The position numbers were made by a program, and so were the translations under genes. From an uncultured Holophaga sp. (GTDB lineage Bacteria > Acidobacteriota > Holophagae > Holophagales > Holophagaceae), in assembly GCA_963664825.1 (NCBI GenBank), contig OY761614.1, positions 3,040,001 to 3,104,000 on the forward strand: a stretch of DNA of 64,000 nt, written 5' to 3'. This document shows, piece by piece, positions 1 through 13,137 of this stretch (positions are counted from its first letter, which is position 1; every line of letters starts with the position of its first letter). Below the pieces are notes generated by a model, which saw nothing but the letters and a program-made list of their open reading frames with translations, searched no databases and was not told where the DNA came from.

Positions 1-89
1 CGTCAAGGCGTAAGAATCCAGCTTGATGGAAAGGTGTTCTTTGGGGTCGCATCGTCTGCTCAGCATTCCACTCCCCTCCATTTTCGTCT

Positions 90-240
90 TGGCGGCCAGT
101 TCGACGACTTGGCGCTCCACGCCGTGGGTGTCGGTATAGCTGCGGGTGCGCTTCTCTCCGTGGATTAGGACGGCCTAGCCCTTGGCCAGGAGCTTCCCAG
201 CGTGGGTCGCGAGGGTGCCCCAGGGGTATCGCACGGGCCA
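90..240 (-). pseudogene. ssb: Single-stranded DNA-binding protein (SSB) remnant with in-frame stop
   Basis: Manual translation WPVRYPWGTLATHAGKLLAKG*AVLIHGEKRTRSYTDTHGVERQVVELAA resembles the SSB OB-fold C-terminal half (W...WGKLAE...L.KG..V...G..RTRS.TD..GVER...E..A); TAG at 177-175. Confidence 0.7.
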
Positions 241-441: not shown

Positions 442-468
442 AAAAACGGCCACCTCGTAGGTGGCCGT
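442..468 (-). terminator. Intrinsic terminator-like hairpin beyond the distal att copy
   Basis: acggccacct-cgt-aggtggccgt stem followed by a T-run on the minus strand. Confidence 0.6.
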
Positions 469-481
469 AAGTGTTGTGTTT

Positions 482-532
482 ATTGGTGGTCCCGGGGCGA
501 TTCGAACGCCCGACCCTCAGATTCGTAGTCTG
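482..532 (-). repeat. att direct repeat: copy of the tRNA-Arg 3' part
   Basis: 51 bp matching 10339-10389 with one mismatch (496 G vs 10353 A). Confidence 0.95.
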
Positions 533-697
533 TAGCAGGCCTTCGGACTCGAAACCATCTCAACACTCAAAGCCTTGTTTTTCAGGCATGTATCAAAGAT
601 CGTTGTTTGGGGAAGGGCGGTAGAGCATTAGAATATTCCCCGTTGCTTTGTAGCTTCAAGCGTATCTCTCTATCGTGCCTTTGCAAGGGGAATCCTC

Positions 698-1894
698 ATG
701 GCTGCCGTCAAGCTCAACACCCGCGTCATTACAGAGCTTGAGCCGAAGGAAAAGACCTATGCCGTGTTCGACACGGAGATCCGGGGCTTCGGGGTCCGGG
801 TCTGGCCCAGTGGCGTGAAGGTCTTCGTGTTCAAGTACGAGCGGCAGGCCAAACAGCATTGGCTGACCCTTGGCCGCTTCGGGGAGCTCACCTTCGAGCA
901 GGCCAAGAAGCGCGCCCTCAAGCATCGACTGGAAATCACGGATGGGCAGAACCCCGGCGCCGTCATTCGGGCCAAAAGGGAAGCCCCGAGCGTGGCCGAT
1001 CTGGCAGATCGATTCCTTCGGGACCATGCCGACCTGAAGACCAAACCCCGGACGGCGGCAGAGTATCGCCGCATGGTGGAACTCTTCATCAAACCGAAAC
1101 TTGGAAGGCTCAAGGTGGCGGACGTACTGCCCGCTGATGCCTATGAATTTCACACCAGCCTCGCCAAGACTCCGCGTCAGGCGAACCATACCTTGGCGGT
1201 GCTCTCCAAGATGTTCAGCCTCGCGGAACTCTGGGGATGGCGAACCCAAAACACGAATCCCTGCTTCATCGTGGAACGCCTCCCGGAGCGGCGGCGGGAC
1301 CGTTTCTTGACAGAGAAGGAATTGGAACGATTGGGGCAAGTGATACAGGAAATGGAAGACGCCATCACGGATTCCATCTACGTCTTTGCCGCTCTTCGGA
1401 TGCTCATCTTCACGGGCGCCCGCCTCAGTGAAATCCTCACCCTTACCTGGGCCATGGTGGATCTGGAAAACGGAATGCTTCGCCTTCCGGATTCGAAAAC
1501 CGGGGCCAAGGTGATCTTTTTGAATCCCCCGGCTATTCGCCTTCTCAAAGTTCTTCCTGAGATCCAGGACAACCCTTATGTTTTCCCCGGCGACCGGGAA
1601 AACGACCGCCTGGTGAACCTCGAAAAGCCCTGGCGGAAGATCCGCGACAAAGCCGGGTTGCCCAATGTCCGAATCCACGATTTGAGGCACACCTTCGCGA
1701 GCATGGCGGCCCAGTCAGGATTGAGTCTTCAGGTGGTGGGCGCCCTCCTCGGGCACACCCATCCGAGCACCACTAAGCGGTATTCGCATTTCGGCACACA
1801 GCCCCTTCTGGACAGCAGCAAACAGGTTGGGGCGAAGCTGGCCAAGGCCCTCGAACAGCCTGTCAAGAAACCCAGTAAGAAACAGGGTTCGTGA
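698..1894 (+). CDS. int: Tyrosine recombinase/integrase with N-terminal arm-binding domain
   Basis: Catalytic motifs TGARLSEI, SKTG, HDLRH, LLGH, RY; N-terminus like Arm-DNA-bind_3/DUF4102; adjacent to att. Confidence 0.95.
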   Translation: MAAVKLNTRVITELEPKEKTYAVFDTEIRGFGVRVWPSGVKVFVFKYERQAKQHWLTLGRFGELTFEQAKKRALKHRLEITDGQNPGAVIRAKREAPSVADLADRFLRDHADLKTKPRTAAEYRRMVELFIKPKLGRLKVADVLPADAYEFHTSLAKTPRQANHTLAVLSKMFSLAELWGWRTQNTNPCFIVERLPERRRDRFLTEKELERLGQVIQEMEDAITDSIYVFAALRMLIFTGARLSEILTLTWAMVDLENGMLRLPDSKTGAKVIFLNPPAIRLLKVLPEIQDNPYVFPGDRENDRLVNLEKPWRKIRDKAGLPNVRIHDLRHTFASMAAQSGLSLQVVGALLGHTHPSTTKRYSHFGTQPLLDSSKQVGAKLAKALEQPVKKPSKKQGS

Positions 1895-2046
1895 AGGGAT
1901 TGGGAGGGGTGGCCGGCTCGCCCTCGCCAGGGTCACGCCAGGGGAAAAAGCGCCCCTGTCATGCCCCCGGCGGTGAGGGCGCCCGTGTCGCTGTTCAACC
2001 CACACCAGCGCTTATTGAAGTGGTCCCAACGCGGCGTGTCGCTCCG

Positions 2047-2401
2047 GTCACCCATCGGACCCCGACCCTCGCGGGGGGTCCGATGGGTGACGGCAGCAGG
2101 CGGATATCAGGAGGGGGGCAAGCCCCCCCTGAAGAACTGCAATAGAGGGGAGAGCCCTCGGGATCCGGCAGCAGAGGTTCCGGGCCTTTGGCCCTCGAAA
2201 ATCCATGCTGATGTCTCGTCGAAAAGGTCCGGTTGTGGGAAACGCGAAGCGTTTTCCAGCCACGGGCCGAGGGGGTGGGAACCCTGGGGAAGGTCCCCTC
2301 GGGACCGCTTGCCTGTGGACCCGAAGGGCGGATGAAATCCGTTCCGCGAAGCGGAATCCATCGGGCAATCCACAGGGTTTCCATGCCCGAGCAACCGGAC
2401 C
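2047..2401 (+). other. Highly structured non-coding region, candidate single-strand origin
   Basis: 17-bp perfect inverted repeat 2047-2091; outer stem 2226-2235/2392-2401 enclosing several GAA-triloop hairpins. Confidence 0.55.
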
Positions 2402-2652
2402 GGGAATGGAGCTTGGATCGCGCTGGAACACCTCAAAGATGGGGAAGTGCGCCGAGGTTGGCCGGGACCTGGGGGCACCGCTTGCGGCGGTGGCAAGTTG
2501 AGTCCTCTGGAACATTGTACAGAAGCGACAGTATAAGATGCATAAATACAAATACATACATAACTAGAAATGATACTAGAAGAGTATTGTGGAATTTGTC
2601 CGCTTCTAGCTATATGCTCAAGGTGTCAGTATTCGTTGGAGATTTTCACAAC

Positions 2653-3216
2653 ATGGCTAAAGAAGCGGATGTTAAGACGCGTAGAAACAGTAATAAGGCG
2701 CGATCTAGCAAAACCCAATTCAACATGCCCTTGAGCGTGGAAGAGGCCCGGCAATTTGACATGATCCAAGCCGCCTGGAGCCTTCCGTCCAAGGCGGAAA
2801 CGTTCCGATGGATGCTCAAGGATTGCCATGAGCGGACCACGACCAAGGAGCACGAAACGATCCTCGGAATGTTTGGTCAGGTCCGGGGAGCGTTGGAGTC
2901 CCTCTTGGTGGAGCAGTCCCAATTCAGAACCGATTTGACCCGCGATGTCATGCGCCTGGTTGAGCGCGCCGGAAATGCCGCTGATCGAATCACGCTTGTC
3001 TCGGAAGCGGCTACCGAGAAGATCGGAAGCCGGGTCGAAAACTCGATCGCAATCACCCGGCAAATGGAACTCGACCTCAAGGAACAACTCGCCGCCGCCA
3101 ACAAGATGCTCTTCTCGGCTTTGGTCCGAATGAAGGTCGAACAGGCCTACCTGCCCGATCATGTGAAGGCGGCCATCAAGGAAGGGCTCAATCGATCCGG
3201 CCTCGCGGGCGTGTGA
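2653..3216 (+). CDS. Hypothetical protein, ribbon-helix-helix-like N-terminus plus coiled coil
   Basis: In-frame ATG at 2653 within ORF 2233..3216; TQFNMPLSVEEARQFD...SKAETFRWML resembles RHH/CopG; helical C-terminus. Confidence 0.6.
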   Translation: MAKEADVKTRRNSNKARSSKTQFNMPLSVEEARQFDMIQAAWSLPSKAETFRWMLKDCHERTTTKEHETILGMFGQVRGALESLLVEQSQFRTDLTRDVMRLVERAGNAADRITLVSEAATEKIGSRVENSIAITRQMELDLKEQLAAANKMLFSALVRMKVEQAYLPDHVKAAIKEGLNRSGLAGV

Positions 3217-3596
3217 CTCATGGCGGGTGCAGATTCGAGGTTTGGATGGGGCGATTGGGAGCCTAGAATCAAATCCATGTTCTTCACGATTCGGGATTGC
3301 ATCGCTCCACGGTCTCCCTTTGTTGGGAGAGGGCGGGCCAATGGGGATTCGTTTCCCATCCGGCTTAGTGAAGTTCAAGACCATCCCACTTCGTGGTTTA
3401 AGAGACAGGATTGCACTTCCAGTCTTGAGGTTGATACCCGGCGATTTGGTCTGGATAGGTCCCACTTTAAAAGGACCGTTGATCTGATCTTGGGCGTTTT
3501 TTTCGTCCAGGAATTCTGTCGCGCAATCGCTACTCTCGCCATAGCCTTTGGGCAAAAATGCGTACAGTGGCAATTCTGTGCTGATCGAGAACAATA

Positions 3597-4574
3597 ATGA
3601 ATGCAGACCTACTTCGTCGCCTAATGAGAGCCATCGCTGAAGGTGGCTCTGGTGAATTGGAACAACTAGGGCATACGATTATCGAAAGTGAGCGGCGCCT
3701 TGGTCATACGAAGCTGTCGTCAGAATTGCTTTCAATTTTAATAAAAAAATCTAAAAATCGTAACCAAGGCGAATCAAGCCTAAAAGGTGATCAATCCCTT
3801 AAAGAATTGCCATCGAGCAAGAGGCGGGGGGATCTATTAGCAACCTTTATTGAGCATGATTCTTTGGAACACACGATGATTCTCCCTCCTGAGACGGAGA
3901 TGAGATTCGCAAGAATTGAGTCTGAGTTTTCCGCAAGAGAACGGCTTGGTCTGCATGGACTTACCTATAGGCGATCAATCCTTCTTCATGGGCCTCCTGG
4001 TTGTGGGAAATCGCTTGGTGCAAAAAGGCTTGCATGGAATACAGGATTGCCACTTATGAAAGTAAGATTTGATGCATTGATATCTTCATTTTTTGGAGAA
4101 TCTGCATCAAATCTTCGTACTGTTTTTGATGCAGCTAACGAAAAGCCGTGTGTTCTTTTGTTTGATGAATGTGATTTTCTTGCCAGATCGAGAATTAATT
4201 CAAAAGATATTGGAGAGGCATCTAGGATTGTCAATACTCTACTGCAGCTAATGGAGGAATTTGAGGCGCCTGGGCTGCTTGTTGCTACTACAAACATTGA
4301 ATCAGCATTGGATCCTGCAATATTTCGTAGATTTGATGATGTCTTTGAGGTCCCGCCGCCTGGTCCTCAAGAAATTGTTAAGTTGATGCAATTGACGCTG
4401 GCTTCGATTAAATATGATGGCAATATTGGTTGGGATAAAATTACATCAAAGCTCGGTAAGGCTTCGGCAGCAATGGCTGTTAAAGCAGCGCAGAATGCCG
4501 CAAAGGCTGCAGTCCTTTCCGGTCGTTTGGTTGTTTCCGAACAACACCTTGTTAAAGCTATAGCTGAATTGTAA
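3597..4574 (+). CDS. ietA: AAA+ ATPase, IetA-like
   Basis: Walker A GPPGCGKS, Walker B LLFDE, LDPAIFRRFD; directly upstream of an S8 protease; AT-rich. Confidence 0.88.
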   Translation: MNADLLRRLMRAIAEGGSGELEQLGHTIIESERRLGHTKLSSELLSILIKKSKNRNQGESSLKGDQSLKELPSSKRRGDLLATFIEHDSLEHTMILPPETEMRFARIESEFSARERLGLHGLTYRRSILLHGPPGCGKSLGAKRLAWNTGLPLMKVRFDALISSFFGESASNLRTVFDAANEKPCVLLFDECDFLARSRINSKDIGEASRIVNTLLQLMEEFEAPGLLVATTNIESALDPAIFRRFDDVFEVPPPGPQEIVKLMQLTLASIKYDGNIGWDKITSKLGKASAAMAVKAAQNAAKAAVLSGRLVVSEQHLVKAIAEL

Positions 4575-4607
4575 GGCCTTGATTGACCAAGGAATTTCAC
4601 ATGGGGT

Positions 4608-7211
4608 ATGTTTATGCCAAACGAACATAATTTCGAGCATCTTCGTTTGATATTTGCAAAACAAGGAATAGCTCGCTTGCATGGGGGTGGGGAATCCAAT
4701 CCGATTACTGTTCAGAATAAGGACAATCGAGCTGGGCATTGCGACACCCTCATGAAGTCCGCCTGTTCGATCTCCGGCGCTTGGGGGGAGCGATTCGCAA
4801 GCCGTGCTCGGGAAAATCTCCCAGATCTTAGGGCAGGTATTCCGCTTTTGTTAAAAATCGACGAATCGATGGATGTCGATAGTTTGAGACATTTTTTGGG
4901 GTTTGAGATTATATCTGAAGAGGATAATGGTTTTGTTATCGTTGCTTCTGAGGACTTAAATCTTGGTCACTTGATTTCAAAAATAAATGATTTCAATAAT
5001 AGTGTCACAGGCTCTGCTGCTGTTGCTCAGATTCATGAATTGATTGAAGAGTCCGAAGAAGAGAATCGCTTATCAAGGATTTTGTCAGATGAGCTGAAAA
5101 ATGAATGGGCATCAATTGGGGATACGGATGACTACGTTGTAGATGTTTCTATCTCATGCTCCGGGAATTGGGTCATCCCAAAAAAACCTAAAAAAGGACG
5201 TCTAAAGCCTGAGACATGGGAGCGGAAGCTTCGTGAATGGAACGAAAATTACGAAACATCCTATATAAAATGGGACAATTTGCGCGAAGAGCGCAAGGAT
5301 GCCATTGGTAACATTATAAATTATTATGGGTCAGAGATAGTTGATGAATATGAGCAAAGTGATGGCGAAACCATTCCGGATAACTTCACTCTTCGCATCA
5401 AATTAACGGGCAAGGCTCTTCGTGATTTTGCCTCGAATTATCCTTATATTTTTGAAATTGGAGAGCCTGAAGATATTGAAACTCCACAAGGTGTGAGGAG
5501 GCAAGATTCGTTAGCTGTCCCTGATGTATCTATTTTGGCGGCACCGGCATCTGCTCCGACGGTTTGCGTCATCGATAGCGGCATTCAGGAGAATCATATT
5601 TGGATCAACCCTGCAATCGATACCGCTAACTCGTTCTGTTTTGTCCCGTATGAATCGCCCACCGACACGGCTGATTACGTGAGCAATGGGGGGCATGGAA
5701 CTCGCGTGGCCGGAGCTATTCTGTATGGTGAGGCTGTCCCGACAGGTGGCACCGTTCAATTAAATGCATGGATTCAAAATGCTCGGGCGCTTGATAAAAA
5801 CTGTGCTTTATCTAGAAGCGTGTTGCCAGAGAAATTAATCAGCCAGGTTGTCGCAAAATACCACAATGGTGATAGGCCGACCAAAATATTTAATCATTCG
5901 ATTAATTCAATAGTGCCGCACAGAAGTAGGCATATGTCTTCGTGGGCATTTGAGATGGATAAATTGTCATATCGGCATGATATATTAATTATTCAAAGCG
6001 CTGGCAATATTCAGCGGTCTGGACCGCCAAATAATCCTGGTGTTGAAGAATTGATTGCATCGGGACATGATTATCCTGAATATTTGACGCGTCGGTCGTG
6101 TAGGATTGCCAATCCGGGGCAGAGCCTTCAGGTGCTGACTGTCGGTTCTATTTCGTATGATCAATTCAGTGATGGTCATTGGGCAAGCTTCTCTGACCAA
6201 TATTCAAAACCTTCTGCTTTCAGTCGGGCTGGATTTGGGATCTGGGATTCAATAAAGCCTGAAGTTGTTGAATTTGGAGGAGATTACTTGCATAGCGGCA
6301 GGCAATCAACGTCTGTGGCTATTCCGGCAACTGGGTCAGCATGCTATCCCGAATTAATTAGATCAACATTGCACGGTGGTCCCGCATTCAGTAAAGATAT
6401 CGTCGGAACCTCGTTTTCGACCCCAAAAGTTTCAAAGCTCGCGGCAAGTATCCAGGCTGTATTACCCGAAGAGTCCTGCCTTATATATAGGGCTCTTATT
6501 GTTCAGTCTGCGCGTTGGCCGAATTGGGCTGAATCACTTACTCGAGACGAGAAGGTGCCGGTTTTGCAGCAAATCGGTTATGGTGTTCCTGATCTAAATC
6601 GAGCAACTACGAATACTCCCTATAGGACGACTTTTATAACGTCGAATGAATACGAATTAAAAGCTGGGGAATGTCATATTTTCCAAATCCCGATTCCTGA
6701 TCGACTTCGCTCCCCAGGTACCGAATATCAAATTCGGCTAGATATAACTCTTTCTTATTCTGCAGAGCCAAAGAGAACCAGGAAAGGGCGGCGAGGCTAC
6801 CTTTCTACATGGTTGGATTGGGAGACAAGTCGGAAAGGTGAGTCGATTGAAGCTTTTACGAATAGGGCGGTAAGGGAAGCTGCAAAAACTTCAACCGAGG
6901 GTCAATCCATTAATTGGACACTCGGCACTCAGGGTAATCATGGCATAATCCCTATTGCAAATCGAAATAATGGAACCGTCCAGAAAGATTGGGCTCAAAT
7001 TAGTTCAAATGAACTCCCTGAATTCTTTTGCATCGCTGTTCGCGGCCACCAGGGATGGAACAAAGATCCAGAGGCCTCTGCAAAATATGTTTTGGCTGTT
7101 TCAATAGAAAATATTGGAAGTGAAATTGAAATATATGAAGACCTTCGAGCCGCTGTCCAGGAACTTCAGTCTGAAACAGAGGTCGAGATGGAGCTGGAGG
7201 TAGATGTTTAG
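4608..7211 (+). CDS. ietS: S8 subtilisin-like serine protease, IetS-like
   Basis: Catalytic triad motifs VCVIDSG, GHGTRVAG, GTSFSTP; oxyanion SAGN; no signal peptide. Confidence 0.9.
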   Translation: MFMPNEHNFEHLRLIFAKQGIARLHGGGESNPITVQNKDNRAGHCDTLMKSACSISGAWGERFASRARENLPDLRAGIPLLLKIDESMDVDSLRHFLGFEIISEEDNGFVIVASEDLNLGHLISKINDFNNSVTGSAAVAQIHELIEESEEENRLSRILSDELKNEWASIGDTDDYVVDVSISCSGNWVIPKKPKKGRLKPETWERKLREWNENYETSYIKWDNLREERKDAIGNIINYYGSEIVDEYEQSDGETIPDNFTLRIKLTGKALRDFASNYPYIFEIGEPEDIETPQGVRRQDSLAVPDVSILAAPASAPTVCVIDSGIQENHIWINPAIDTANSFCFVPYESPTDTADYVSNGGHGTRVAGAILYGEAVPTGGTVQLNAWIQNARALDKNCALSRSVLPEKLISQVVAKYHNGDRPTKIFNHSINSIVPHRSRHMSSWAFEMDKLSYRHDILIIQSAGNIQRSGPPNNPGVEELIASGHDYPEYLTRRSCRIANPGQSLQVLTVGSISYDQFSDGHWASFSDQYSKPSAFSRAGFGIWDSIKPEVVEFGGDYLHSGRQSTSVAIPATGSACYPELIRSTLHGGPAFSKDIVGTSFSTPKVSKLAASIQAVLPEESCLIYRALIVQSARWPNWAESLTRDEKVPVLQQIGYGVPDLNRATTNTPYRTTFITSNEYELKAGECHIFQIPIPDRLRSPGTEYQIRLDITLSYSAEPKRTRKGRRGYLSTWLDWETSRKGESIEAFTNRAVREAAKTSTEGQSINWTLGTQGNHGIIPIANRNNGTVQKDWAQISSNELPEFFCIAVRGHQGWNKDPEASAKYVLAVSIENIGSEIEIYEDLRAAVQELQSETEVEMELEVDV

Positions 7212-7264
7212 TGTGGTGACATTGGTAACAACTGAAGAATCGAAACAGCTAGCCGTTCCTCGCT

Positions 7265-7579
7265 TCAGTTCTCGATGAACCGCTCTGGTTCGAAATCCTG
7301 CTCCATCCTCATCACGCCGATAACCCACAGCTCCTTCCCGGCGATCCGGTAGATCACCCGGAAGGGGCGTACGCTGAGGAGTTCCCGGTAAGTCTGTCCC
7401 AGCTCCGGGATGAAGCGGGCCATCTCAGGGAAAGCGGCTGCATGTTCGACAGCTTCCATGACTCGGGCGAAGAGGTTTTGGGCGGCCTCGGGGTTCTCAA
7501 AGGCGATGTATGACAGCAGGGCGTCAAGGTCCCGTTCGGCGGGATCCGACCAACGAACGCTGAGGGGTTTCAGGCCCAT
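7265..7579 (-). CDS. RelE/ParE family toxin
   Basis: VRWSDPAERDL...YIA.ENP.AA...FRVIYRI pattern; overlaps the antitoxin stop. Confidence 0.88.
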   Translation of the reverse strand: MGLKPLSVRWSDPAERDLDALLSYIAFENPEAAQNLFARVMEAVEHAAAFPEMARFIPELGQTYRELLSVRPFRVIYRIAGKELWVIGVMRMEQDFEPERFIEN

Positions 7580-7833
7580 CGCTTCGCCATCCGGGCCTTC
7601 ACGTCTGCGTGAGAGCTTGCCCGCCCTTCCGTGAAGGCCTGTTCGCCCTTGGCGATGACCTCCAGCAGTTCGAGGCGATGAAGCATGCCCTTGTAGGTCG
7701 CCACATCCAGCATGACGGCAGCCTCCTTGCCGTGCTCTGTGATGAGCACCGGCACACGATCAGCGCGGAGCTGGTCGATGATCTCGGTTGCGTGGCGCTT
7801 GATTTCGGTGACGGGCTTCAGGGCGGGCAACAT
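7570..7833 (-). CDS. Phd/YefM family antitoxin
   Basis: Start refined to ATG 7833 after GGAGG; VTEIKRHATEIID...PVLITEHGKEAAVML. Confidence 0.88.
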   Translation of the reverse strand: MLPALKPVTEIKRHATEIIDQLRADRVPVLITEHGKEAAVMLDVATYKGMLHRLELLEVIAKGEQAFTEGRASSHADVKARMAKRWA

Positions 7834-7976
7834 GGCGGGCCTCCAGAACCAAGAATGATACTTTAGTGCCACTTCGGCAAGGGCCTCATGGTTGAACCTG
7901 ATTACTGGCTCCGCGATCTGGGCGTACCGCTTCGTGCCCCATTCGGGACTGGATGCGCTGTCAGGCTTGAGTTGTG

Positions 7977-9509
7977 TCATGTCATCTCTCCTATCGGGGG
8001 CGGCCCCGTCATGGTTGGAACCCAGTACCCCTTGGCCTTGAGTCCCGCTTCGAGGTGTTCCAAGGCTGAAAACGCCCGCCGAGACGCGATTTGCAACCAT
8101 GTGTGAAGGTCCAAGGTGGCCATGAGCCCGCGAAGGGTTTCTCGACGCCGGGTCTCATCCTTGGATGGTTCCTTTACTGGAGCGCCGTCAGATATTGCAG
8201 GGGTATCAAGCGAACAGGAAGCACCCGCTTCGCGGGCCGCAGCGCCCCTCAGATCGGCCAGAAGCTCCGGTGAAAGGCCGTCCCTGGCCTCGCACCACTC
8301 AGGGGCCTTCCAACGGCTTCTGGCAGCCCCCACGCATTCGAAGACGCGAGGGCTTCGATTCCAGATGCCATCGCGCAGGTAGTCACCTGGAAGGCCTGAC
8401 ACGATCCACTCGCCTGGATGCTCCGGATCGGGAACGTAGCAGGCGATGTCATCGGCCTTGGTGCAGTATTTCAGGGTTTCCTGGATGGCGTCTTCCAAGG
8501 ACATGGCGTTATCGCCCCGGCGTGTCCTGCGGTTGACGGCTTGAACGTGGATGCAGGCGGTGATGGCTTTGGCGCGGTTTTCCATCTGGGGATAGAGGTC
8601 TTCCAGCTCGAACCCGTAGACACGACGCGTAGCCGTTCGCAGGCAGGCCCACCACGCCGCCGCCAAATCGGCTTGGGACACGTACCGCGCCCAGGCCAGC
8701 AAATGGAAATGCGGGTGATGCAATACAACCCCATCCCAGAACGATTTGCGGGTGACCTCAAAGCCACGGAAAGCAGCGAAGACCGTGGCTTTGAAGATGT
8801 CCAATTTGCGAAAGAGGGACCAGGCCAAGAACATGCGTTCCTCTTCCCGCACCTCGCAAACGCTCGACACGATGGAGGGATCTAGCGTTGGTGTGGTGAG
8901 TGTCCAGGCGACAGGCAACACTTTTCCCGCCTCTTTCGTGTCGTACGCCACAGCCCAGAGGCGGCGCCGAACGTGCCGGATTGCCTCGCGAGCCTTTTTC
9001 CTGGAACGCACACTCAGGCGCCGTTGGTAGGCGGGTGCATAACGCATGGAAGCGCCGAAGCCAGATCCGCCCATGCCGAAAAGCCGATCTCCATGGCGGC
9101 CCACCACGCCGTACGGAGTTTGAGCTTCGAGCAGCAGGAGCGCCGCGGAACGCAAGGCCAAGCCTTCCCCTGGTTTGGCCATGATCTCAAGCCCATCGGC
9201 ATCCAGGAGGATCACTTCTCCGGTGTCATCCCGGCTCAAGCGCACCTTTCCGCCCGCGAGGGATTCCGCCAGTGCAGAGGCATAGCGGGATGCTGAGCAG
9301 GCGCGGTACTGAGCTGTGCGAATCGATTCCGTCAATGAGCCGAGGACCTCTCCTGAAGTGGGATCGACCACGAGCGGGCCTTCTGACGTGTCGAGAACGG
9401 CCAGGCCTTCCCATGTCGCAGGACATGGCGAAGCCGGGGTGTCCCGAGCGCCCTTGTGCGGGGAGCCCGAGCCACCTTCCATCGTAAATGTGTGCAAGAT
9501 TGCAGCCAC
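7977..9509 (-). CDS. rep: HUH rolling-circle replication initiator (Rep_1/pC194-like)
   Basis: Motif I WTLTTP, motif II HPHFHLL preceded by FEVT, motif III ETLKYCTK; exact start uncertain. Confidence 0.82.
   Translation of the reverse strand: MAAILHTFTMEGGSGSPHKGARDTPASPCPATWEGLAVLDTSEGPLVVDPTSGEVLGSLTESIRTAQYRACSASRYASALAESLAGGKVRLSRDDTGEVILLDADGLEIMAKPGEGLALRSAALLLLEAQTPYGVVGRHGDRLFGMGGSGFGASMRYAPAYQRRLSVRSRKKAREAIRHVRRRLWAVAYDTKEAGKVLPVAWTLTTPTLDPSIVSSVCEVREEERMFLAWSLFRKLDIFKATVFAAFRGFEVTRKSFWDGVVLHHPHFHLLAWARYVSQADLAAAWWACLRTATRRVYGFELEDLYPQMENRAKAITACIHVQAVNRRTRRGDNAMSLEDAIQETLKYCTKADDIACYVPDPEHPGEWIVSGLPGDYLRDGIWNRSPRVFECVGAARSRWKAPEWCEARDGLSPELLADLRGAAAREAGASCSLDTPAISDGAPVKEPSKDETRRRETLRGLMATLDLHTWLQIASRRAFSALEHLEAGLKAKGYWVPTMTGPPPIGEMT
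8204..8220 (-). other. Candidate double-strand origin nick site TTCCTGTTCGCTTG/ATA
   Basis: CTTGATA core as in pC194/phiX174 origins, preceded by a pyrimidine-rich tract. Confidence 0.5.
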
Positions 9510-9576
9510 GCTTGCGCGAAGACACGCCCCAGGCGAAGCCAGGGCTCAAAGGCCTGAAAGGCGCGTCAGCGTTTGA

Positions 9577-9822
9577 TTAGCGGCGCTGGTAGTAGGGGCC
9601 GGGATCCACCGTGGACCGGCGCCGCTGAGCTTCCAGCCAGCGCGTGATGTCGTCCATGGTGTAGAGCACCCGGCGAGGGCTGATGCGCAGATACTCCGGG
9701 CCTTCGCCCGTCATGCGTAGGCGCTGGAGATAGGCCTTCTTCATGCCCAGGTATTCAGCGGCTTGTTGGGTCGTGAGGAAGGGAGTCTTCACGGGCTCTG
9801 GGGTTTCCTTGCGGGTAGCCAT
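9577..9822 (-). CDS. HTH_17/excisionase-like DNA-binding protein
   Basis: Start refined to 9822 after GGAGG; FLTTQQAAEYLG...GEGPEY...RVLY...I..WL. Confidence 0.85.
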   Translation of the reverse strand: MATRKETPEPVKTPFLTTQQAAEYLGMKKAYLQRLRMTGEGPEYLRISPRRVLYTMDDITRWLEAQRRRSTVDPGPYYQRR

Positions 9823-10299
9823 TGCGGCCTCCAAAGCGCCGGGGTGCGTTGCAGGAACCCCAGCGATTTCACCCTTCCGTCTTGCGAACCGCGCATCCCA
9901 ACCGCACAATAGTTGGACGACGCTGCCGCAAGGCAACGCAAGTGCCGCCCCTCCCCATGGCTGTTTTCGAGGCAGAACCATGTGGAGGGGTTCGTGTATG
10001 TACTCCCAGCGGCGCTGGAAGGTCTTGATGATGTCGGAAGTATCGTTTCGTGGATTTTGGGTGTCAAGCCGTAAGAATAGATATAACTTGACTTGGCTAG
10101 GCTATAGCCTAGCCTGCGATCTGCCTAAATCCTTTGCTTGCCTCCTTTCTCGGCCCGAGCGTGGACCTTTTTGGGGAGGCAGTTCTTTTGCGAGGAGACG
10201 CCGCAGAAGATGACAGGGGGCCCGTTTGGGCTCACCAGGTGGTACGCACCCGTGAAATGAGTCGAAGGGCGGCCCTGTATCTTCGCCGTAGCTGAACGC

Positions 10300-10325
10300 A
10301 AAAGAGCCGCCTTGTGGGCGGCTCT
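10300..10325 (-). terminator. Element-supplied terminator for the tRNA
   Basis: agagccgcc-ttgtg-ggcggctct stem plus T-run on the minus strand just downstream of the tRNA CCA. Confidence 0.65.
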
Positions 10326-10340
10326 AAGTGTTGTATTGAT

Positions 10341-10417
10341 TGGTGGTCCCGGAGCGATTCGAACGCCCGACCCTCAGATTCGTAGTCTGATGCTCTATCC
10401 AGCTGAGCTACGGGACC
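10341..10417 (-). tRNA. tRNA-Arg (anticodon ACG), CCA encoded
   Basis: Reverse complement GGTCCCGTAGCTCAGCTGGATAGAGCATCAGACTACGAATCTGAGGGTCGGGCGTTCGAATCGCTCCGGGACCACCA folds as a cloverleaf. Confidence 0.97.
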
Positions 10418-10794: not shown

Positions 10795-13137
10795 ATGAGC
10801 GAACTGACACGCAAGGAAGTGGTTTTCATCCTCAAGTCGGGGAAAGACTTCCATCGCACCGACTTGAGTGGTCTGGACCTCCGGGGCTTCGATCTGTCCG
10901 AGGCCAACCTTTCCGAGGCCAATCTGGCCGGCGCGGTCCTCAATCAGGCCTCCCTGCGGGGCGCCAATCTCGCGGGCGCGGATCTGCGTTTGGCGAATCT
11001 GGATGAAGCCGATCTCGAGGGCGCCAACCTGAGTCGGGCCAAGCTCGCCGGGGCCAATCTGGCGGGCGTGAACCTCGCCAAGGCCGACCTGAGTCATTTC
11101 GATATCCAGCAGTACGAACCGGCCACCATCCCCAATCTGCGCGGAGCCGTGCTGAGCGGGGCGCTGCTGAGCGGCGTGAACCTGGGCGGCCTGGATTTGA
11201 GCGGGAAGGATCTGCGGGGCGCCAATCTGAGCGGCGCCGATCTGCGTCAGGCCGTGCTTGAGGGGGCCAATCTGGAAGGCGCCAGCCTCTCCCAGGCGAG
11301 CCTTTTGGGGGCGGCCCTGGGCCACGCCAACCTCCTGGGCGCGAACCTGTCTGGGGCCGTGCTAGGGGGCGCCGCACTCAACCGGGCCGATCTCTCCGGG
11401 GCCAATCTCTCGGATGCCGATCTCCATTGGGCCAGCCTTGCGGAGGCCAATCTCGAAGGGGCCAATCTCAGTCGCGCCAATCTGAAGGGCGCTAATTTGA
11501 GCGGCGCCAATCTGGTGGGCGCCGATCTGCGCTACCTGGACATCCTCCAGTACGACAAGAACGATATCCCCAACCTGGCGGGAGCCAATCTCTCCGGCAC
11601 CAATCTCTCTGGCACCAATCTGCGGGGGATCGACCTCAGTCGCTCCAATCTGAGCAAGGCCGATCTCAGCACGGCGGTGCTGCGGCACGCCAGCCTCGAG
11701 GGCGCCAATCTTTCCGAGGCCAATCTCAAGGGGGCCGATCTCACGGGCACCAATCTCAGTGGCGCGGTGCTCTCGGGCGCCAATCTGAGCGGTGCGCTCC
11801 TGAGCGGCGCCGTGCTGAGTGCTGCGGATTTGCGCGGTGCCGATCTCACAGGCGCCGATCTCAGTGAGATCAATCTCAGCGGCGCCAATCTCTCCGACGC
11901 AATTCTCTCCGGAGCCAGTCTTTCCGGCGCGCTCCTGGATGGCGCCGTGCTGGCGGGAGCGGTGCTGGTGGGCGCCAACCTCAAGCGGGTAGATTTCTCC
12001 GAGAAGAATCTGCGGGGGGCGAACCTGGGGAATGCCGATCTCTCCCAGGCCAACCTGGATGGTGCCGATCTGGCCAGCGCGGTCTTCTGCGGGGCCAATC
12101 TCTCCGAGACCCATCTCGGCGGAGCCAACCTCCACCTCTCCCGGCTCACGGGCAATGATCTCCGCAGCGCGAATCTCTGCGGGGCCAATCTCAGTGAGGC
12201 CGATCTCAGCAGCGCGAACCTCGAAGGCGTCATCCTCAGCGCCAACTTGCAGGGCGCCAACCTCACAGGGGCCAGCCTCCGCGGGGCCAGTCTGGACCGG
12301 GCCATGCTCGCTGGCGTCAACCTCAGCGGCACGGACCTCACGGGCTTCATCCTCGAGGGCATGGACCTCAATCATGCGGTGCTCGACGGGGCCAATCTGA
12401 ACGGGGCCAATCTGCGCAGCGCCATTCTCCGGGAGGCCCGGGCCGTGGGCGCCGATCTCAGCCTCTGCAACCTCTCCTCGGCCGATCTCAGTGGCAGCGA
12501 GTTGCGTGGTTCGAATCTCTTCAGCGCCAATCTCGAGGGCGCCAACCTGAGAGGGGCCAAGCTGGCCTCCCTGCCCACGGAATCCTGGGGCGAGTATCGC
12601 ACCAATCTCAGCAAGGCCAATCTCCGCGGCGCCGATCTCACAGGAGCCGATCTCTACCAGGCCAACCTGAACGAGGCGAATTTCGTCAATGCCGATCTCA
12701 GCAACGCCAACATGGTGTGGGCGGATCTGCGGGGCGTCGATCTCCGCCAGACCAATCTCACCGAGACGAACCTCAAGGAGGCCAATCTCGATGGGGCCAA
12801 TCTCTGCGGCGCCGATCTCCGGGAGACCATCCTGCGGGACGCCTACCTGGATGGCGCCAATCTCTCCGGGGCCAATCTCAGCGGCACGAACCTGTCCGGC
12901 GCCGATCTGCGGCACACAAACCTCATCGATGCGGCCATGGATGGTGCGAACCTCTCGGATGCCAATCTGAGCGGCGCGAACCTGGTGTGGACCAACCTCT
13001 CAGGGGCCAATCTCAATCGCGCGAACATGAGCCATGCCAAGCTCAGTGGCGCCAATTTGGGAGGGGCCGATCTCCGGGAGGCCAATCTCACGGACGCCAA
13101 TCTGGATAGCACCAATCTCGCGGGCGCCAAGCGCTAA
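10795..13137 (+). CDS. Very long pentapeptide-repeat protein
   Basis: 780 aa almost entirely A(N/D)LSG-type repeats. Confidence 0.93.

Follow-up and report, generated by a model that had tools for sequence, protein, structure and literature searches.

A putative relaxase-less integrative mobilisable element with a rolling-circle replicon in a Holophagaceae tRNA-Arg gene

How might a small genomic island spread when it appears to encode an integrase and a replication initiator and no transfer genes? We addressed this question for an island in a 64,000-nucleotide stretch (the window) of the chromosome of an uncultured Holophaga sp. (Holophagaceae, Acidobacteriota; GenBank assembly GCA_963664825.1, contig OY761614.1, positions 3,040,001 to 3,104,000), whose genome is one 3.47-Mb contig. 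An initial annotation had described a compact, helper-dependent rolling-circle element with defence cargo, possibly of an undescribed class. We consider it probable that the island is a relaxase-less integrative mobilisable element (IME) of the iOriT type that contains a rolling-circle replicon and is mobilised in trans. It belongs among IMEs because it keeps a site resembling an origin of transfer (oriT) and an accessory gene of a mobilisation operon; on these sequence-level tests the class appears to be a known one, not a new one. What is new is the combination: the oriT family traced here and an Acidobacteriota Rep_1-like lineage whose predicted origin lies within rep and whose mobilisation modules are interchangeable.

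The island and its attachment sites

The island occupies a tRNA-Arg(ACG) gene and is bounded by attachment (att) sites. Its direct repeats (443 to 532 and 10300 to 10389; 90 bp, 88% identity) are spaced by exactly 9857 bp, in agreement with the circle size and tRNA-Arg repeats annotated initially. The repeat had been placed from 482; positions 482 to 532 do equal the other copy at 50 of 51 positions, with an identical att core of 36 bp, but the repeat is longer, running from 443 and covering the 3' half of tRNA-Arg(ACG) together with its terminator-like hairpin (446 to 468). Copy 1 (443 to 532, minus strand) holds this displaced half and hairpin; copy 2 (10300 to 10417, minus strand), delimited by repeat and tRNA searches, includes the intact gene at 10341 to 10417. 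Joining the outer arms in silico recreates a tRNA-Arg. Copy 1 is likely the original host sequence, because its identity to the DNA that follows the tRNA gene in congeners G111 and G108 is 93.7%, versus 77 to 78% for the block of the other copy.

Between the repeats lie genes for an integrase, a 187-aa protein, an AAA ATPase and S8 protease (IetA and IetS), a ParE/Phd pair, a Rep and an HTH_17 protein. All eight are open reading frames (ORFs), and catalytic motifs are intact in Int, Rep, IetA and IetS. The island is thus defined by an integrase with att sites at both ends, as expected of the iOriT type. Nine sequencing runs from six studies are listed as containing the element, none of them RNA, and the four compared with it consist of contigs. 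In two of these, from two studies (X1 and X3, one perhaps from the source sample), the element forms a single 9852-nt piece with zero differences, ending at the att cores, and another left flank is present as a loose end. Contig depth in X1 was 27 for the element piece, 15 to 16 to its left and approximately 35 to its right, values that do not measure copy number.

A predicted mobilisation module

The earlier statement that the island lacks transfer and packaging genes holds for the families searched: no coupling-protein, type IV secretion system (T4SS), capsid or terminase family was found among the scanned ORFs (12 in Pfam, 6 in PHROGs), and a profile of the local relaxase family, run against all six frames of the element, detected no remnant of a relaxase. 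As in iOriT elements, there is no own relaxase and no mating-pore gene. Overlooked, in contrast, was what appears to be a mobilisation module at 2477 to 3216, consisting of an oriT-like motif and a relaxosome-accessory-like gene.

The predicted oriT (2477 to 2500, no strand assigned) is a 5-bp hairpin followed by GGCAAGTTG, the same motif that precedes Holophagaceae relaxase loci. Homologues of the relaxase of G041, an element with a closely related Rep, mark 25 loci (L139-L163) spread over 19 of 133 Holophagaceae genomes, and a gene for a 120- to 155-aa protein usually precedes them. A hairpin with GGCAAG(T/A) lies upstream of 21 of these loci, at −573 to −597 from the relaxase start in 20 and at −786 in one; of the other four, two lack the motif, one is truncated at the edge of its contig and one matches only in its C-terminal part. 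The 25 loci are kin rather than independent samples. This widespread relaxase family, with its conserved oriT-like motif, scores under the Pfam and NCBIfam cut-offs; it resembles PF03432, yet all four members tested fall below that cut-off.

We scanned the genome with a matrix of 23 sites from 20 loci, leaving out sites from this genome and including three off-position matches. Four of the top 120 sites have the hairpin; the best two of these are the window site and a site in a tRNA-Met island on the same chromosome, both upstream of accessory-type genes and identical over 12 nt. The iOriT hallmark of an oriT resembling that of a relaxase-bearing helper is therefore present at the level of sequence. 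The minus strand reads ..ACTTG/C (CATCTTG/C in G041) and resembles the MOBP consensus (C/T)ATCCTG(C/T), a likeness that does not settle which strand is nicked. A MOBQ-like word, AAGTGCGCC, seen by eye near 2445, gained no further support and was set aside.

Approximately 150 nt downstream of the motif, in the same orientation and arrangement as at the relaxase loci, lies the 187-aa gene (2653 to 3216, plus strand), a predicted ribbon-helix-helix relaxosome accessory protein with a long helical tail. Searched against 14,047 sequences, a profile built from 23 pre-relaxase proteins recovers it at E 3.8e-4 and all 11 of its relatives at 8e-6 to 2.4e-3, the next match being at 0.24. The protein has no Pfam match of its own and weak ribbon-helix-helix leads only; there was no PDB sequence match and no Foldseek match at E<=1e-3, and it was not found in the 132 other family genomes. 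Of 13 family members tested, one passes Pfam RHH_1 and several match ribbon-helix-helix families weakly. The IetAS genes occupy the place after the accessory gene, where the family operon has its relaxase and coupling protein.

A candidate helper on the same chromosome

The tRNA-Met island (G000:C1:2962591-2987607; 25 kb, 47-bp att repeat) lies approximately 75 kb away and encodes an Int and Xis that are 42% and 43% identical to those of the element. Besides the oriT motif and an accessory gene, it has genes for a relaxase (G000:C1:2963555-2965105) and a coupling protein, both of them open ORFs, whose products are 30% and 50% identical to their G041 counterparts. Its coupling protein passes the PF02534 cut-off; its relaxase is assigned to PF03432 at 0.93 in the ESM Atlas and has the invariant Tyr and three His. 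Two more MOBP-like relaxase genes are present elsewhere in the host genome. The tRNA-Met island also holds a phage-like replication pair, recognised by eye, and a 2828-aa repeat protein.

The Rep initiator and its predicted origins

The rep gene (7977 to 9509, minus strand; 501 to 510 aa) encodes what appears to be a divergent Rep_1-type HUH rolling-circle initiator, as judged by its Pfam match and motifs. The profile check proposed initially gave a split result, with a match to Rep_1 (PF01446) at E 1.8e-6 whose 28 bits are below the curated cut-off of 33.2; G030, a more distant member of the Rep group, passes at 37.2 bits. HUH motifs I to III, noted in the initial annotation along with the HTH gene, are well founded: they read WTLTTP, HPHFH and ETLKYCTK, with HxH and E..KY..K invariant in 30 homologues, and motif I, HxH and E..KY..K invariant or nearly so across 15 close and 30 broader homologues. 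Together with the E...Y catalytic pair they are those of the Rep_1 (pC194) family, and E335/Y339 (501-aa numbering) have the same spacing as Glu210/Tyr214 of pC194 (PMC5703833). HUH proteins are among the top structural matches to the model (pLDDT 75.6; Z 5.2 to 6.7), the best of which (Z 6.7, rmsd 4.2, 112 aligned) is under Z 8, and Foldseek gave no PDB match at E<=1e-3. In a viral library, 12 matches at E<=1e-3 were all unnamed, the first named one being a microvirus replication initiator at 1.0e-3. PLSDB held no match for the Rep or for the hairpins described below.

DNA-level conservation points to a double-strand origin inside rep (8190 to 8222, minus strand), with CTTGATA at 8204 to 8210. 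The site reads TGTTC-CTTGATAC-CAATA and encodes a short LDT-P-I motif near the Rep C-terminus, conserved even though the model places it in a linker of low confidence. Across six close homologues, this stretch has the highest third-position identity and the lowest GC content at third positions of 415 ten-codon windows (0.23, versus a mean of 0.70, sd 0.075). Exact CTTGATA is present in five of the six, and of 132 columns with an invariant residue, the only 2 that keep a single codon ending in A/T both fall here. Given that the pC194-family nick site is CTTGAT (PMC2440964), we infer nicking by Rep at CTTG/ATA. This family hallmark is recovered by synonymous-site conservation, yet within rep; because double-strand origins usually lie upstream of rep (PMC5703833), an intragenic one is a variant, for which pMEA elements, whose origin sits at the 3' terminus of rep, offer a partial precedent (PMC2440964).

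A conserved imperfect hairpin (1911 to 1987, minus strand) is a candidate single-strand origin or initiation signal, identified by covariation and strand folding. In 15 copies, picked by likeness to the window and folded on their own consensus, 93.7% of cells are paired and 26 changes are two-sided, versus 7.8±2.3 after shuffling (reached in 0 of 500 shuffles). Its minus strand folds better in all 15 copies, and mismatches become G.T pairs in 27 cases on the minus strand versus 3 on the plus strand; the minus strand is the rep coding strand, which is displaced during rolling-circle replication. Among 27 loci searched, the hairpin was detected in G043, G058 and G100 (E 5e-18, 1e-4 and 0.016), where it is oriented relative to rep as it is here. 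It may act as a single-strand (lagging-strand) origin, and an RNA role may also be considered.

A model for replication and transfer

In the model that we favour, Int and Xis would excise the island as a 9857-bp circle, Rep would nick the coding strand at CTTG/ATA inside rep to start rolling-circle replication, and the displaced strand would be converted at the 1911-1987 hairpin. The accessory protein of the element would bind next to oriT and recruit the relaxase and coupling protein of the neighbouring island, while a conjugative third element would supply the pore. The excised circle would be guarded against loss by ParE/Phd and IetAS, which may block phages as well. The model places a new oriT family, a replication origin and a possible lagging-strand origin at exact coordinates, and points to one particular helper on the same chromosome. 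It also suggests that islands with seemingly no transfer genes can conceal a mobilisation module missed by standard profiles. The small att-Int-Rep-oriT cassette is a possible vector scaffold for Holophagaceae. Our searches listed no such element before in the phylum Acidobacteriota, and none was described for Holophagae in the literature searched, subscription papers being mostly outside its reach.

Several observations weigh against the model. Excision, replication and transfer are deduced rather than observed, the available contigs all breaking at the att cores. By sequence alone, the oriT-like site ranks 8th genome-wide, and the DNA past GGCAAGTTG differs between the window and the tRNA-Met island. 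Homology of the accessory protein is weak, two pairwise (single-sequence) profile comparisons not being significant (E 0.09 and 0.21), and its 11 close relatives are known without genomic context. Searches of the 27 loci did not recover the 1911-1987 hairpin from G041, L050 or L051, and islands lacking this Rep have it too, next to primase, helicase and relaxase genes; because these islands are unrelated, it is a shared signal. Three relatives (G053, G087 and G100) have damaged Reps, so decay is common. Finally, VirB4, VirB10, TraG-type ATPase and VirB6 were not found in the host genome (96.6% complete), so the pore must come from a third element, and VirB10 is present in just 4 of 133 family genomes. 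On the favourable side, such dependence on three parties has been described: a third of iOriTs use the relaxase of another hitcher and the pore of a third element (bioRxiv 10.64898/2026.01.13.699239).

Relatives of the element and possible loss of a relaxase

We found the Rep in 9 of 133 family genomes with a single query, in 19 of 133 with a profile, and in 6 of 401 genomes sampled from the phylum; the locus in G386, which shares its ORFs with that of G030, may not count as independent. The profile matched 153 proteins at E<=1e-3 and 10 at <=1e-30, and the named records with the closest Reps are Holophagaceae. The broad alignment A2 produced no pattern with which the collections could be scanned. 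In a tree of 18 Reps, which leaves out the truncated Reps of G053 and G087, the Rep of the element falls in a clade of eight (support 100/99). Its seven other members comprise two short fragments (L048 and L049), four with mobilisation genes (a relaxase and coupling protein in G041, a coupling protein in L051, TrwC in L050, and NikA-like and MOBP relaxase genes in G058) and G100 without them, so that four of the five close relatives with enough context carry such genes. G100 is a 5.6-kb, att-bounded, relaxase-free island at tRNA-Lys that has lost the origin-bearing end of rep. More distant att-bounded Rep_1 islands, in which no mobilisation genes were seen, include G043 (6.9 kb) and G018 (12 kb); G005 is a MOBQ element with MobA and a ParE/Phd pair. 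The initial annotation had asked whether homologues always lie in larger integrative and conjugative elements (ICEs) or prophages: most close relatives do have relaxase or coupling-protein genes, but they are small-to-medium mobilisable islands and not full ICEs or prophages.

Since relaxase or coupling-protein genes are present in most close relatives, a relaxase may plausibly have been lost, and the island could be a stranded deletion derivative in which IetAS replaced those genes, able perhaps to excise and replicate, incapable of transfer and kept by two addiction modules. The position of IetAS in the operon, the mobilisation genes in four of five close relatives, the broken relatives at tRNA-Arg and tRNA-Lys and the failure to find pore genes in the host would all fit. 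We nevertheless consider this explanation unlikely, since the eight genes are open with intact catalytic motifs in Int, Rep, IetA and IetS, no relaxase remnant was found in the element, the chromosome also holds an island that could donate a relaxase and shares the 12-nt site, and G100, of the same inner clade, is likewise att-bounded and relaxase-free.

A broader form of the model is possible, and we put it forward tentatively: the island may be the founding member of an Acidobacteriota lineage of integrative rolling-circle replicons with a rep-buried origin and free swaps of mobilisation modules, this copy being an active second-order hitchhiker that redirects the relaxase of its neighbour via its own accessory protein. 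The modules in this lineage would be an unclassified MOBP-like relaxase with a coupling protein, MOBF, MOBP, MOBQ, or an oriT and accessory protein alone. The network might use an unrecognised transfer channel, since 19 of 133 Holophagaceae genomes have such relaxase islands and just 4 have VirB10.

Less likely readings: Rep as a relaxase, and a phage satellite

Could Rep double as the relaxase, with transfer starting from the double-strand origin and DNA handed to the coupling protein of the helper, as for Rep_1 plasmids mobilised by ICEBs1? Initiators of the pC194 type do serve in ICEBs1 mobilisation (PMC5704250, PMC5714925, PMC5357655), and the predicted double-strand origin and the oriT-like site have CTTG in common on the same strand. 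The known cases in those sources use Firmicutes TcpA coupling proteins, whereas the element keeps a separate oriT-like motif and accessory gene, and its close relatives hold dedicated relaxases beside the same Rep. We regard this route as quite improbable.

A satellite that packages the Rep-generated strand in a single-stranded DNA phage or another phage, as proposed initially, would suit the minimal Int-Xis-Rep plan with defence cargo, the many hairpins that could serve as packaging signals and the distant Rep_1 relatives that sit in provirus-like clusters with a transglutaminase gene, in some cases at the same tRNA-Arg, but it is the least credible reading and unlikely indeed, with no relative of the Rep in IMG/VR or INPHARED, no Zot found in the host genome, neither packaging or morphogenesis genes nor an identified helper phage, no match in the host to the provirus-like proteins tested, two weak PHROG matches among 24 such proteins, and an oriT module that needs no phage.

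Comparison with known systems

Like the iOriT elements described so far (bioRxiv 10.64898/2026.01.13.699239; PMC11389934), the relaxase-less IME proposed here is att-bounded and has an integrase, an oriT-like site and defence genes, with no relaxase or pore; reliance on the relaxase of another hitcher and the pore of a third element is described there too. Those elements are known from six nosocomial species, whereas this one is from Acidobacteriota, encodes a rolling-circle Rep and brings an accessory gene of its own. SGI1 of Salmonella (PMC5006074, PMC5704250) likewise has Int and a putative replication initiator, is mobilised in trans, and is stabilised when excised by SgiAT, an AAA-ATPase/subtilisin toxin-antitoxin (TA) pair related to IetAS; it differs in its size (~42 kb), its Rep_3 theta initiator and its pore subunits, the element having an HUH Rep and none of the last. 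Actinomycete ICEs (AICEs) of the pSAM2/pMEA type (PMC2440964) share tRNA integration, Int, Xis and a pC194-type CTTGAT, with the pMEA origin at the 3' end of rep, but they transfer double-stranded DNA with an FtsK-type protein. The element has no FtsK/SpoIIIE among its ORFs and, lacking an FtsK-type Tra, is not an AICE; on this point, and on compact helper-dependent rolling-circle architecture with defence/TA cargo, the initial annotation stands.

Plasmids mobilised by pWBG749 (SmpO, PMC8136818) and pCERC7-type plasmids also combine an oriT with a ribbon-helix-helix accessory gene and use a relaxase in trans, with specificity set by the accessory protein, although they are free plasmids of unrelated sequence. 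Streptococcal IMEs (PMC5357655) are small integrase-bearing islands with a rolling-circle initiator that often lack a coupling protein; their initiators are of the Rep_trans, Rep_2, PHA00330 or Viral_Rep families and they use TcpA, whereas the Rep here is Rep_1-like.

We found no phage link of the kind that marks PICMI-type satellites (PMC11389934). PICMI and other minimalist phage satellites resemble the element in their very small backbone, cargo and absence of packaging genes; unlike it, they are primase-based and phage-mobilised.

Integration genes and cargo

The integrase is full-length, as first annotated: a 398-aa tyrosine integrase (698 to 1894, plus strand) that matches PF00589 (4.9e-24) and the Arm DNA-binding domain PF13356 (Arm-DNA-bind_3, 1.4e-14) and has RLSE/HDLR/LGH/KRY motifs. 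The HTH_17 excisionase-like gene (9577 to 9822, minus strand; 81 aa from ATG 9822) matches PF12728 (9.5e-11) and phrog_66, and its product is 98.8% identical over 81 aa to its G053 counterpart.

Both cargo pairs recognised initially were recovered. The IetA-like AAA ATPase (3597 to 4574, plus strand; PADLOC 6.8e-66, GC approximately 0.41 to 0.46) and the IetS-like S8 protease (4608 to 7211, plus strand; PADLOC 4.2e-63, PF00082, D/H/S motifs present) form a low-GC pair with the adjacent arrangement and PADLOC profile matches of the IetAS/SgiAT family; NCBIfam IteA/IteS match it under their cut-offs. IetAS may serve in phage defence, by analogy with the systems named in PADLOC and NCBIfam, or may be an addiction module like its relative SgiAT of SGI1 (PMC5006074, PMC5704250). 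The type II TA pair comprises a ParE-family toxin (7265 to 7579, minus strand; PF05016, 2.3e-14) and a Phd/YefM antitoxin (7570 to 7833, minus strand; PF02604, 2.6e-13), both over cut-off. Cargo varies among relatives: Fic in G100, a DNA methylase in L050, AAA_21 with DUF4276 in L051 and an Mrr-type nuclease in G043.

Other features and neighbouring islands

Two further non-coding modules, with no strand assigned, follow the 1911-1987 hairpin. A long hairpin with 23-nt arms (2041 to 2097) has matches in the G005, G097, G058 and G065 islands. A multi-hairpin module with GAA loops (2234 to 2403), present in four copies each in G113 and G122 and without an Rfam match, is multicopy in relatives, often at contig ends beside ORFs that look by eye like transposases; it is probably an insertion sequence (IS)-end remnant, and we rejected its hairpins as a single-strand origin because they are multicopy and IS-like. 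On the window, Rfam gave tRNA matches and one chance-level match, and promoter and terminator scans were near chance level.

Left of the att site (window 1 to 180; G000:C1:3038668-3040241) are an AbiEii toxin gene (Pfam), a weak AbiEi match and, by eye, what looks like a remnant of ssb interrupted by stop codons; together they are probably left over from an older island at the same tRNA. Congeners hold unrelated islands at this tRNA-Arg, in L166 (G109:C31; 7.3 kb, 52-bp att repeat) and G104:C20 (~25 kb, from two tRNA matches), which makes the site a hotspot. Upstream of the tRNA (window 10795 to 13137) lies a gene for a 780-aa pentapeptide-repeat protein that is present in congeners too.

Among the islands surveyed, the G058 element has tandem 133-bp repeats adjoining its att site (L016:8347-8694). 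L086 (G453:C462, 3022 bp) has a 141-nt terminal repeat, is likely circular and encodes a Rep_1 protein and two ORFs of unknown function. The L078, L079, L080, L087, L118 and L124 islands carry, by eye, very large RHS/YD-repeat toxin-like proteins with small downstream genes. The provirus-like clusters with distant Rep_1 relatives and a transglutaminase-like gene, some of them at tRNA-Arg(ACG), include those of G030, G040 and G011; L019, L076, L077, L084, L085 and L020, several at this tRNA, add many ORFs of unknown function to those two genes and are possibly undescribed tailless proviruses.

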